From a virus: a stretch of DNA of 59,821 bases. Below the pieces are notes generated by a model. It saw only the letters and a program-made list of their open reading frames with translations. It was not told the origin of the DNA and ran no database searches. A program made the translations under genes and the position numbers. The stretch is taken from the IMG/VR virus record IMGVR_UViG_3300037714_000050, one strand, 5' to 3'. Of the stretch, positions 58,615-59,821 are shown in pieces (position 1 is the first letter of the stretch; each line of letters opens with the position of its first letter).

Positions 58615-58643
58615 TTGCGCACCTCGCGCAGTCCGTGTAGGTT
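58615..58643 (+). promoter_or_regulatory. Candidate promoter for the RNA array: TTGCGC-N17-TAGGTT
   Basis: Read directly. The predicted start site is a few nt before module 1 (58653). Confidence 0.3.
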
Positions 58644-58652
58644 GTCGGTATA

Positions 58653-58788
58653 CCTGATGGGTCGAACGGAACGCCGGTTACTCCTTTCACGAGAGGAACG
58701 CAGGTTCGAATCCTGCCGGGGGAGTTAGCTTCCCCGTCGTCCAGCGGCCTAGGACACTTACCCCGGCTCCACTCACACATCCAGCAGG
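58653..58788 (+). ncRNA. Y RNA-like module 1: permuted tRNA-Glu(UUC)-like apical domain
   Basis: H1 CCUGAU/AGCAGG and H2 GCCGG/CCGGC. Anticodon-loop-like CUUUCAC. T arm GCAGG-UUCGAAU-CCUGC. Acceptor CGGGGGA/UUCCCCG closed by the loop GUUAGC. D arm GUCC-AGCGGCCUA-GGAC. Confidence 0.7.
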
Positions 58789-58799
58789 GCACAACTTCA

Positions 58800-58868
58800 C
58801 TCTTCGGGTCGAAGGCTTCTGGTTCTCACACTGAAATGAACCCCGGTAGCCACTTACACATCCGAGAG
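58800..58868 (+). ncRNA. Y RNA-like module 2: minimal hairpin
   Basis: H1 CUCUU/GAGAG and H2 GGCUUCUGG/CCGGUAGCC with a 20-nt loop. Confidence 0.65.
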
Positions 58869-58879
58869 ACAACTTCATC

Positions 58880-58958
58880 GCCACGGGTCGAAGCAACGCC
58901 GGTTATCCCAGACTGCTAATCTGATTAATGTCCGGCATCGCAATCCCACATCCGTGGT
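58880..58958 (+). ncRNA. Y RNA-like module 3: apical anticodon-arm-like hairpin
   Basis: H1 GCCAC/GUGGU and H2 GCAACGCCGG/CCGGCAUCGC. Apical hairpin CAGA-CUGCUAA-UCUG. Confidence 0.65.
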
Positions 58959-58970
58959 TACAACTGAAAA

Positions 58971-59106
58971 GTGGCGGGCCGAAGCAAATCGCTTAACGGG
59001 ACCAGGATGTTGGTGGTTCAAATCCACCTCTCCCGACTTCCCCCGGGAGGTAGCTCAATCCGGCAGAGCACCTGGATAAAGCGATCTGCACCTACATGAC
59101 CGCCAC
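58971..59106 (+). ncRNA. Y RNA-like module 4: circularly permuted tRNA-Pro(CGG)-like domain
   Basis: H1 GUGGCGG/CCGCCAC and H2 GCAAAUCGCUU/AAGCGAUCUGC. Order is CGGGA-CCAGG-AUGUU-[GGUGG UUCAAAU CCACC]-UCUCCCG-A-cuucccc-CGGGAGG-UA-[GCUC AAUCCGGCA GAGC]-A-CCUGG-AU. Confidence 0.75.
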
Positions 59107-59119
59107 GTATAACTTCATA

Positions 59120-59251
59120 GCGTCGGGTCGAAGAGATTCGCTTACCCAGACCTCTTATCTGGGTCCCATCGGCTGGCGGGCTAAACCCCGTCCGGTGAAA
59201 TGACACCCTTGGCCGTGGAACCGTCAGCGAGCCTCGCCCCATATCCGACGC
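59120..59251 (+). ncRNA. Y RNA-like module 5: large non-tRNA apical domain with anticodon-arm-like hairpin
   Basis: H1 GCGUC/GACGC and H2 GAGAUUCGCU/AGCGAGCCUC. Hairpin CCCAGA-CCUCUUA-UCUGGG. The 3' conserved block is AUAUCC. Confidence 0.6.
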
Positions 59252-59255
59252 ACCC

Positions 59256-59273
59256 CAGAAAACATGTTTTCTG
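59256..59273. promoter_or_regulatory. Palindromic motif copy 13/13 (CAGAAAACATGTTTTCTG) inside the RNA array
   Basis: Replaces the usual ACAACUGAA linker between modules 5 and 6. Its last base (59273) is the first base of the module 6 closing helix (GAGAC). Confidence 0.6.
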
Positions 59274-59371
59274 AGACGGGTCGAACGTTCTGGTTATCGT
59301 CACCACGGCAGAGATGCCACCCCCATTGCAGCGCCTGACAGCCTGCACCAGTTCGATAGCACATCCGTCTC
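59273..59371 (+). ncRNA. Y RNA-like module 6
   Basis: H1 GAGAC/GUCUC and H2 CGUUCUGG/CCAGUUCG. Apical hairpins GGCA-gaga-UGCC and UGCAG...CUGCA. Confidence 0.6.
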
Positions 59372-59385
59372 TCACAACTTGATAC

Positions 59386-59494
59386 GTAGTGGGTCGAATG
59401 AGGCCGGTTATTTGGCTACGTGGTTTCGATACCACCCTCGGCGCACGTGTGACAGCGACACCGGGAGACCCGGACTCTCCAACACATCCACTAC
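59386..59494 (+). ncRNA. Y RNA-like module 7: partial tRNA-like domain (T arm plus acceptor-like stem)
   Basis: H1 GUAGU/ACUAC and H2 GAGGCCGG/CCGGACUC. T-arm-like GUGGU-UUCGAU-ACCAC. Stem CCCUCGG/CCGGGAG. Confidence 0.6.
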
Positions 59495-59506
59495 TTACAA
59501 CTGAAC

Positions 59507-59630
59507 ATCGACGGGCCGAAGTTATCGGTTACCCATGTGCTGGCTAGGGAGATCAGCCCTCGCAAGAGGGACGGGGAGGTTCGAATCCTCCATCACATAA
59601 ACCTCCGATCTCGATCACACTTCCGTCGTT
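59507..59630 (+). ncRNA. Y RNA-like module 8: tRNA-shaped domain in non-permuted order
   Basis: H1 (AU)CGAC/GUCG(UU) and H2 AUCGG/CCGAU. AUGUG...CACAU stem, D-like GGCU...AGCC, CCCUC-GCAA-GAGGG (GNRA loop), and T arm GGAGG-UUCGAAU-CCUCC. The 5' block is GGGCCGAAG and the 3' block ACUUCC. Confidence 0.6.
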
Positions 59631-59642
59631 ACAACTGAATCT

Positions 59643-59746
59643 GTGACGGGTCGAAGCACCCCGGTTATCTTTGGTTCGACTCCAAATGCGCGCTTGCCGC
59701 GTATGGCTTGGCTTAGCCACCGGAACTGCATCCCCACATCCGTCAC
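59643..59746 (+). ncRNA. Y RNA-like module 9: permuted tRNA-like domain lacking an anticodon arm
   Basis: H1 GUGAC/GUCAC and H2 GCA..CCGG/CCGG..UGC. T arm UUUGG-UUCGACU-CCAAA. Acceptor UGCGCG/CGCGUA closed by CUUGC. D-like GGCU-UGGCUU-AGCC. Its 3' part recurs at 1-52. Confidence 0.65.
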
Positions 59747-59754
59747 TCGCCTTT

Positions 59755-59820
59755 CATCGCGGGTCGGAGCCGATGGGTTTTCTCCTGATGACTCCCCATC
59801 CTCATTTCACATCCGCGATG
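59755..59820 (+). ncRNA. Y RNA-like module 10: minimal hairpin (same as 61-126)
   Basis: H1 CAUCGC/GCGAUG, block GGGUCGGAG / ACAUCC, and H2 GAUGGG/CCCAUC. Confidence 0.6.
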
Positions 59821-59821
59821 C

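Follow-up and report, generated by a model that had tools for sequence, protein, structure and literature searches.

An array of ten Y RNA-like units upstream of rsr

The window analyzed here is the whole 59,821-nucleotide (nt) stretch of IMG/VR virus record IMGVR_UViG_3300037714_000050. Ten Y RNA-like units of 66-136 nt each stand in tandem on its + strand, spanning positions 58653-59820, directly upstream of rsr, a phage gene for an orthologue of Ro60. Y RNAs are obligate partners of Ro60. The array lies in a gap of 1.27 kilobases (kb) between an SPFH gene and rsr that holds no credible open reading frame (ORF), and gene callers placed zero genes in this gap on three identical or near-identical public contigs. 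Its 3' end is 63 nt before the start of rsr on the same strand, within the ~4-kb distance from a Ro60 gene that serves as a proximity criterion for YrlA-like RNAs. The Rsr protein matches Pfam TROVE (2e-44), vWA_Ro60 (6.5e-57) and PHROG 850 (RNA-binding protein), and the MIDAS motif (for metal-ion-dependent adhesion site) D-I-S-G-S can be read at nt 1339-1353. Table 1 collects the features of the window.

The window is a 59,694-base-pair (bp) circle plus a 127-nt assembly overlap, positions 1-127 being identical to 59695-59821. An exact 127-nt terminal direct repeat is usual for a circular contig out of a k=127 assembly, and the contig break fell inside the array by chance. An earlier note on this DNA had the array continue across the wrap to nt 126. 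That continuation is a duplication: within the overlap, the end of unit 9 and all of unit 10 (59755-59820, here 61-126) are met a second time, which leaves the count at ten and no more. The note also began the array at 58615, a coordinate that belongs to a -35-like hexamer and not to a unit. All ten units that it had described were found again by motif, partner and fold, and its proposal that they are Y RNA-like ligands of Ro60 made from one precursor is supported by its agreement with all the tests available.

Table 1. Features of the 59,821-nt window. P1, closing helix with core; P2, second helix; z, z-score of the single-unit fold; R1, score from a covariance model built on the stem.
Feature	Position	Strand	Description
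Promoter-like element	58615..58643	+	TTGCGC (58615-58620), 17-nt spacer, TAGGTT (58638-58643)
Unit 1	58653..58788	+	136 nt; YrlA-type permuted tRNA mimic; z = -2.1
Unit 2	58800..58868	+	69 nt, minimal; P1 with bulged U, P2, small apical loop; R1 29.9 bits
Unit 3	58880..58958	+	79 nt; P1, P2, one hairpin; z = -2.0; R1 33.7 bits
Unit 4	58971..59106	+	136 nt; YrlA-type; core variant GGGC.../AUGACC; z = -2.8
Unit 5	59120..59251	+	132 nt; P1, P2, 7-bp hairpin, three-way junction; z = -3.1
Palindrome	59256..59273		18 nt, perfect, CAGAAAACATGTTTTCTG; in unit 5-6 spacer, in place of the ACAACU linker
Unit 6	59273..59371	+	99 nt; P1, P2, small hairpins; z = -2.7; R1 31.0 bits
Unit 7	59386..59494	+	109 nt; P1, P2, T-like arm GUGG-UUUCGAUA-CCAC, variable hairpin; R1 30.3 bits
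Unit 8	59509..59628	+	120 nt; P1 (4 bp + core, one C.U mismatch), P2, cloverleaf
Unit 9	59643..59746	+	104 nt; YrlA-type without V arm; R1 38.2 bits
Unit 10	59755..59820 (again at 61-126)	+	66 nt, minimal; core variant GUCGGAG; z = -2.6
Intrinsic-terminator-like hairpin	132..171	+	13 bp, 10 G-C, then UUCUUUCU; from terminator scan
rsr	184..1887	+	567-aa Ro60 orthologue; GTG start; ribosome-binding site GAGGAGGAAG
Antirepressor (P22_AR_N / PHROG 524)	2221-3015	+	just downstream of rsr
Acb2/Tad1 hairpin-domain protein	3015-3521	+	anti-CBASS/anti-Thoeris sponge fold; just downstream of rsr
tRNA genes Tyr-GTA, Gln-CTG, Cys-GCA	4199-4435	+	three, packed; ARAGORN; 2.3 kb downstream of rsr
Type II hammerhead ribozyme (Rfam RF02276)	33578-33639	+	40.8 bits, above gathering score 37; full model matched
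PNKP phosphatase-domain protein	37776-38576	+	polynucleotide kinase family, RNA or DNA end healing
Rv2179c-like 3'-5' exoribonuclease	46737-47288	+	
SPFH/Band 7 gene	57706-58605		borders the array gap on the other side from rsr

The units share a stem and differ in their closing helices

Each unit follows the same plan. A unit-specific closing helix of 4-6 bp leads into a near-constant core with a bulged C, GGGYCGRA facing CA(C/U)AUCC, and beyond the core lie a second covarying helix (P2) and an apical domain, or head, that differs from unit to unit. GGGYCGRA occurs ten times on the + strand of the array (58659, 58806, 58885, 58976, 59125, 59278, 59391, 59513, 59648 and 59761) and 14 times elsewhere in the genome on both strands together; the expectation for 1172 nt is 0.14 (Poisson P = 6e-16). 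CA(C/U)AUCC or a near variant follows every copy, 54-124 nt to the 3' side. The earlier note had a near-invariant core facing ACAUCC, and a partner is indeed present in every unit, although ACAUCC itself is found in seven and gives way in units 4, 5 and 8 to AUGACC, AUAUCC and ACUUCC, respectively. GGUUA, which it assigned to the units in general, is present in six of the ten, the others having GCUUA, GGUUC or GGUUU.

Chen et al. (2014) defined the motif GNCGAAN0-1G and reported that 254 bacteria and 22 phages have YrlA-like RNAs in the vicinity of rsr (PMC4201824). Nine of the ten window units carry this motif, the exception being unit 10 (GUCGGAG), as do 49 of the 70 distinct units of the phage clade described below; the remainder have GUCGAC or GUCGAU variants.

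The closing helices are different but complementary, as had been listed. Their flanks pair at -6.0 kcal/mol with the cognate strand and at -0.8 kcal/mol with non-cognate ones, and none of 100,000 permutations reached the observed total. P2 is likewise cognate-specific, at -11.2 versus -6.2 kcal/mol in the window (0 of 100,000 permutations), and the same test over the 70 units gave 0 of 20,000. When folded singly, all ten units formed the closing helix, the GGGU:AUCC pairing, an internal loop, P2 and a head, with z-scores that were all negative (-1.1 to -3.1).

The covariation persisted after homologues were added. Across 67 distinct units from 12 arrays, 91.7% of P1 cells were paired, compared with 31-53% in slid controls, and there were 140 double-change cells versus 48 in shuffles, a count that 0 of 500 shuffles reached. 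The core is the most conserved part of each unit. Its G-C, G-C and G.U pairs are invariant in 64-67 of the 67 units, and its U-A pair (58 units) swaps to C-G in eight. The G.U pair, retained in 65, behaves as would be expected for a protein-recognition element. The C.U mismatch in the core of unit 8 is a C-G pair in the orthologue from the relative with 97% identical Rsr.

In the window, a covariance model built on the stem (R1) matched these units alone at E < 0.1, and in 56 viral rsr loci its only matches were + strand sites directly beside rsr. Since R1 detects units up to ~111 nt and fails on units 1, 4, 5 and 8 because of their long head insertions, we used it for specificity and never for counting. 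A loosened home-made descriptor gave 356 matches on the + strand versus 287 on the - strand; it was too noisy in high-GC DNA and was dropped, and stricter versions were applied inside arrays only.

Five of the ten heads resemble parts of tRNAs

The heads comprise three permuted tRNA mimics, one cloverleaf in native order, one unit with a T arm and five folds unlike tRNA. T-arm-like elements are confined to units 1, 4, 7, 8 and 9; the earlier idea of tRNA-mimic heads holds for these and fails for units 2, 3, 5, 6 and 10. The predicted unit ends give lengths of 66-136 nt, compared with ~80-130 nt for YrlA-like RNAs.

In units 1, 4 and 9, the YrlA model aligns with a T arm, an acceptor-like hairpin and a D arm, the three elements by which at least one RNA per genome is expected to show a tRNA-like domain. 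Unit 1 consists of P1, P2, a V hairpin, the T arm GCAGG-UUCGAAU-CCUGC, an acceptor-like hairpin of 7-8 bp and a D-like arm. Unit 4 has the T arm GGUGG-UUCAAAU-CCACC, a 7-bp acceptor-like hairpin and the D arm GCUC-AAUCCGGCA-GAGC, and unit 9 has the T arm UUUGG-UUCGACU-CCAAA, a 7-bp acceptor-like hairpin and a D-like hairpin. Units 1 and 4 carry an additional V hairpin or extra stem beyond the T, acceptor-like, D order. The T arm and acceptor-like hairpin covary in the orthologues of units 1 and 9, with 11 compensatory pairs across nine orthologues of unit 1 and 14 across six of unit 9. YrlA (RF02553) was the best Rfam family for units 1 (21.4 bits), 4 (30.3 bits, E = 3e-4) and 9 (21.1 bits), always with a score under its threshold, and the full model was covered in units 4 and 9. 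The Rfam tRNA model found a 14.9-bit T-arm fragment in unit 1 only. An exact-match scan of the genome collection for the published Mycobacterium smegmatis YrlA probe sequence returned nothing.

Unit 8 carries a cloverleaf whose arms follow the order of a native tRNA and whose acceptor-like end connects it to P2. The arms are the 5-bp stem AUGUG/CACAU, a D-like hairpin, the hairpin CCCUC-GCAA-GAGGG with its GNRA cap, and the T arm GGAGG-UUCGAAU-CCUCC, and the cloverleaf stems show five compensatory pairs (Alifold, four orthologues). We found no native-order cloverleaf joined via its acceptor end in the Y RNA literature searched. Unit 7 has nine compensatory pairs (Alifold, five orthologues). 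Unit 5, without any tRNA-like motif, has five (Alifold with the L143 and L146 orthologues; L numbers denote individual rsr loci). The heads of units 2, 6 and 10 are small, and that of unit 6 has no T loop.

The hairpin of unit 3 (58909-58923) has the 7-nt loop CUGCUAA. The same loop, on covarying stems and directly after GGUUAUC, recurs in distant rsr loci (L013 3873-3889, L032 3457-3473, L053 6991-7007; also L070, L076 and L136), where it forms the only head of short units and the 'V arm' of YrlA-type units in distant phages. The sequence comparison marks this hairpin as a conserved element. We considered a tRNA-Ser(GCU) anticodon mimic in unit 3 and dropped it, the hairpin filling the YrlA 'V arm' position in other loci. 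A blastn-short search with the heads of the ten units against 136 rsr loci found almost nothing besides T arms; the heads appear to be conserved among close relatives only.

Five T-arm-like heads, three exact 7-bp acceptor-like hairpins and the cloverleaf of unit 8 would also suit RNAs that act without Ro60, as decoys, tRNA-like or otherwise structured, that during infection would titrate or divert host enzymes such as nucleases directed at tRNA, RNase P, or those for CCA addition or modification, with the shared stem as a stabilising or processing platform only. Counter-defence against RNA-targeting systems is plausible, given that the phage has genes for a protein with a PNKP phosphatase domain and for an anti-defence protein of the Acb2/Tad1 kind. 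However, the constant part of the units is the published Ro60-recognition motif with its bulged-C helix, which is also their best-conserved part, the modules adjoin rsr on the same strand wherever they are found, and the other five heads are not tRNA-like. We therefore regard decoys of this kind as unlikely.

A promoter-like element, linkers and a terminator frame the array

The promoter-like element at 58615 is followed by GTCGGTAT and ends 9 nt 5' of unit 1, which places the predicted transcription start at ~58650-58652, 1-3 nt 5' of the unit. The pattern TTGC-- / N17-18 / TA(G/A)G(T/C)T with GTCGGTAT is kept before unit 1 in ten arrays, while the spacer sequence varies.

The units are separated by linkers of 9-16 nt, presumably single-stranded. 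ACAACU had been described as joining the units throughout. It occurs at six of the nine window junctions, AUAACU takes its place at one, and both are absent from the 5->6 and 9->10 junctions; among distinct clade spacers it is present in 34 of 52. Mycobacterial RNase E cuts single-stranded RR↓CNU (PMC10641625), a preference that the linker consensus ACAA↓CUU would fit. L143 and L144 retain the arms AGAAAAC/GTTTTCT of the palindrome that lies between units 5 and 6; by inspection the palindrome does not match an actinobacterial SOS box. A perfect 18-bp inverted repeat with a 7-nt loop and no U tract lies at 2148-2190, 3' of the small ORFs after rsr. Its 5' arm opens with ACAACUG, a heptamer common to the array linkers, and it may be an operon-end hairpin or a processing site.

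The terminator-like hairpin directly follows unit 10 and lies ~20 nt before the rsr start codon, touching the ribosome-binding site. In L001, L057, L058 and L143-L152, too, the array is succeeded by a homologous hairpin (CGAGTGGC...GCCACTCG). Since the position of the hairpin against the ribosome-binding site leaves no space for a second promoter, rsr mRNA probably arises by read-through. In L148 and L150 an extra palindrome (UUGAAAC-CAG-UUUCAA type) or a small ORF lies between the terminator and the rsr ribosome-binding site, and L058 has such an insertion at 200-470; these insertions suggest variable control of read-through.

The same arrangement, conserved in relatives and with no room for a separate promoter, could mean that the region is mainly a structured leader and attenuator for rsr, in which folding or occupancy would set read-through of the terminator and no ten stable RNAs would be made. 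A 1.2-kb leader of ten self-contained units with their own closing helices is not needed for this purpose, though, and the arrays of L044 and L053 lie downstream of rsr. Units are gained and lost independently while the terminator stays, and the units of M. smegmatis are stable, Rsr-bound RNAs (PMC4201824). As a replacement for Ro60-binding RNAs we find an attenuator very unlikely; as an added layer it is compatible with them.

Relatives keep the array and exchange its units

The exact Rsr protein is present on three Logan contigs. Its homologues include proteins of 97, 85 and 83% identity and ~85 more at 55-67%; the latter, mostly on contigs of 57-62 kb, define what by sequence is a phage clade. 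A blastn search of the array against 50,697 phage records gave zero matches, so there is no cultured close relative among them. With a GC content of ~64%, a portal protein 41-44% identical to those of Microbacterium and Arthrobacter phages, and an Rsr that in a search for a prophage of the clade was at most 46% identical to any GTDB representative genome, with the best matches in Actinomycetota, the genome points to an uncultivated actinobacteriophage.

The fetched contigs carry 10 (window), 10 (L143), 9, 7, 6, 6, 5, 5, 4 and 4 units. In all of them the first is the same YrlA-type unit with a CCUGAU closing helix, and the last is a short unit followed by the terminator. The orthologous arrays show a core of first, penultimate and last heads, the remainder being accessory. 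Compared with L143, the relative with 97% identical Rsr, nine units are 97.8-100% identical, versus 93.1% for rsr third codon positions, and unit 5 is only 81% identical. In the comparison with L144, units 6-9 are 79-93% identical, versus 70.2% for rsr third codon positions, and unit 10 is replaced. The units are thus more identical than rsr third positions, which indicates purifying selection with turnover of individual units.

These comparisons also bear on the possibility that the region has no function today, being either a decayed tRNA cluster or a tandem repeat of a selfish or neutral kind. Phage rsr genes often adjoin tRNA clusters and T-arm-like sequences are present, as a decayed cluster would have them. 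ARAGORN, however, finds no tRNA in the array, its calls in the window being confined to 4199-4435. The units are more conserved than rsr synonymous sites, compensatory change is abundant and extends to the heads of orthologous units, and the units differ in sequence outside the functional core and are therefore not recent duplicates. We give this explanation almost no credence.

Y-like arrays occur beyond the clade

In 913 kb of rsr loci, the 5'-half pattern GGYCGR-N6-13-NDTTA had 257 occurrences on the strand of rsr, compared with 21 on the opposite one. The largest clusters held ~8-9 copies (L044, downstream of rsr), 6-7 (L053) and 5 (L013 and L032), and the largest in 80 bacterial rsr loci held 5. 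In IMG/VR, a bare 14-base pattern gave 80 raw matches, of which 10 were no more than ~1 kb from an rsr homologue and in each case shared its strand. L044 (IMG/VR 3300033990_000083, 29% GC) has ~9 Y-like units at 5601-7000, in two blocks with a small ORF-like stretch between them; large arrays are thus not restricted to actinophages. Two familiar phages in culture, a cluster C mycobacteriophage (L020, 3530-3880) and Gordonia phage Cashline (L138, 2150-2440), have three and two tandem Y-like units, respectively, upstream of a 'Ro-like RNA binding protein' gene, and the GenBank records of these Gordonia and Mycobacterium phages annotate none of these RNAs. Both loci fall short of the Rfam YrlA gathering score of 69 (best, 36.1).

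L013 (~3500-3650) and L032 (~3510-3640) contain an RNA shaped like a tRNA, with the acceptor stem GGAGAGU/ACUCUCC and both a D arm and a T arm. In place of an anticodon arm it has a Ro-type helix capped by a loop (CUUACCC-GCUUGC-GGGUCGAUGG). As read from its sequence, this is a circular permutation of the YrlA layout. We found no such RNA in the Y RNA literature searched.

Comparison with known Y RNAs

The closest parallels are YrlA and YrlB of M. smegmatis and Salmonella Typhimurium (RF02553; PMC4201824), which like the present units adjoin rsr on the same strand and have GNCGAAN0-1G in the 5' part of an end-to-end stem. They also share the permuted head of V, T, acceptor-like and D elements seen in units 1, 4 and 9. 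In M. smegmatis a single precursor from upstream of rsr is processed to both YrlA and YrlB, and RNase P cuts the 7-bp acceptor stem of YrlA (PMC4201824), which has its counterpart in the acceptor-like hairpin here. There are two RNAs from that precursor and ten units here, and both strands of the Ro-type helix are conserved in the window (GGGUCGAA / CACAUCC), whereas in the RNAs of Salmonella and M. smegmatis the 5' strand alone can be recognised. Seven of our units lack the YrlA head, one has a non-permuted cloverleaf, and the Rfam scores are far below threshold.

Among phages, the Ro60 of Thermus phage phiLo binds two upstream Yrl RNAs with a CGAA motif (PMC12135203). Yrl1 and Yrl2 resemble the present units in being phage-encoded upstream of the Ro60 gene and in placing CGAA in an internal loop between terminal and distal stems. 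They differ in number (two versus ten) and host phylum; similarity beyond the motif is undetectable, and no tRNA-like heads have been reported for them. Binding was shown experimentally for phiLo, whereas the present array is known from its sequence. Listeria phage CKA15 has three highly transcribed non-coding RNA regions less than 2 kb upstream of an Rsr-like gene (PMC12282133). The YrlA locus of cluster C mycobacteriophages (ET08/Catera type, as in L020) shares the P1 logic, the GGUUA(C/U)C motif and the linker UAUAACUGAAAAG. Its middle unit is the published YrlA type and the only one reported, the flanking two being unannotated in GenBank; it differs from the window in having three units and the core variant AGGCCGA / CAUGUCU.

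Deinococcus radiodurans has several small RNAs upstream of rsr (Yrn1, Yrn2 and RNAs a-d) that also retain both strands of the Ro helix, and its Y RNA tethers Rsr to PNPase. It differs in having up to four RNAs, in belonging to a separate lineage and in how its T and D arms are oriented (PMC4201824). In metazoan Y RNAs (RF00019), too, the terminal helix has a bulged C and a G.U pair, with GGUC on its 5' strand, and these RNAs form small families of two to four paralogues with different loops; they differ in having separate Pol III genes, an oligo-U tail and no tRNA-like heads.

The kind of arrangement is thus already known, and the novelty is one of degree and organisation. New are the scale of ten units, the conservation of both docking-helix strands, the address-like closing helices, the conserved linker, the terminator before rsr, the heads unlike YrlA and the clade-wide gain and loss of units. 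The earlier note considered a ten-unit array undescribed; our literature searches found no Y RNA array described that is larger than the published ones above, but the array is not unique, given its relatives with 4-10 units, the unrelated AT-rich phage with ~9, cluster C with 3 and bacteria with up to ~5. It is the largest version found in this analysis of a barely annotated arrangement.

Neighboring genes and other features

The neighborhood of the array comprises genes for a Cas4-like exonuclease, the SPFH protein, the antirepressor and the Acb2/Tad1-hairpin protein, and the three tRNAs. The Ro-like genes of Gordonia and Mycobacterium phages likewise adjoin tRNA or tmRNA clusters. An Acb2/Tad1-like gene lies 1-2.4 kb from rsr in seven of the eight 56-67% relatives examined (L146-L151 and the window's twin L140), and is lacking in L152. 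Among the ORFs neighboring the PNKP-like gene, we found no RNA ligase partner for its product.

A probable polycistronic Y RNA operon

We consider it likely that the array is a polycistronic Y RNA operon whose products dock on the phage Ro60 and carry different heads. Transcription would start at the conserved actinobacterial-type promoter 1-3 nt 5' of unit 1, pass through the ten units and mostly end at the strong hairpin terminator (132-171), and the read-through that probably supplies rsr mRNA would yield many Y RNAs per Ro60 message. The precursor would be cut in its single-stranded linkers, where ACAA↓CU fits the mycobacterial RNase E site, and the 7-bp acceptor-like hairpins of units 1, 4 and 9 may be cut by RNase P, as in M. 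smegmatis YrlA. The released RNAs, 66-136 nt long, would present a common docking module to Ro60, made of G-C, G-C, G.U and U-A pairs, a bulged C and a G-C pair, then a GAA internal loop. Binding is expected by analogy with M. smegmatis (PMC4201824) and phage phiLo (PMC12135203). The closing helix would serve as an address that pairs each 5' core with its own 3' core among ten near-identical cores. Different heads may give Ro60 different partners or different gating, in the way that a Y RNA tethers Rsr to PNPase.

Several observations weigh against this interpretation. The array is known from the sequence of an uncultivated phage, and the processing enzymes are guesses. The ACAACUG linker variant lacks the +3 U of the RNase E motif, and two junctions have no linker at all. 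An E. coli-consensus promoter scan does not call the promoter-like element, so we infer it from its conservation. No unit reaches the RF02553 gathering threshold of 69 bits (best, 30.3), a gathering-threshold Rfam scan of the whole window called no YrlA, and the metazoan Y_RNA model (RF00019) matched nothing in 58500-59821 at E <= 10. In cluster C mycobacteriophages the YrlA locus, a published YrlA type, scores 36.1 bits and also falls below 69, so this threshold excludes actinophage YrlAs in general. In the unconstrained minimum-free-energy fold of the whole transcript, only four of the ten P1 stems are kept because the shared cores pair across units. A 160-nt limit on base-pair span preserves all ten and still yields 97% of the unconstrained energy, which fits co-transcriptional folding in modules, and the cross-pairing itself suggests a reason for ten different closing helices. 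Finally, the 'adaptor' role of the heads is an analogy, and five heads resemble nothing known.

A bolder extension, which we regard as possible but doubtful, is that the array is an evolvable adaptor library. Interchangeable heads on a constant docking stem would mimic different RNA substrates or recruit different host factors, the closing helices would act as address codes, and the leaky terminator would set a high ratio of Y RNA to Ro60. In that case, the turnover of units among close relatives (4-10 per array, with units 5 and 10 replaced) would be the mark of an arms race in which the phage faces the host's defences against RNA or its RNA quality control. If so, phage Ro60 would be a programmable, multi-specific ribonucleoprotein and not one with a single partner.

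To our knowledge, the role of a bacterial Y RNA is known for essentially one case, the tethering of Rsr to PNPase, and in phages hardly at all. Here, a clade of ~60-kb phages has up to ten distinct Y RNA-like molecules in an apparent single transcription unit. Such arrays are widespread and unannotated, even in the well-studied cluster C mycobacteriophages, and the Rfam YrlA threshold misses their actinophage members. The same protein and the same stem with ten heads amount to a natural experiment on the variable half of the Y RNA, and the locus is a tractable system for asking what Y RNA heads do.

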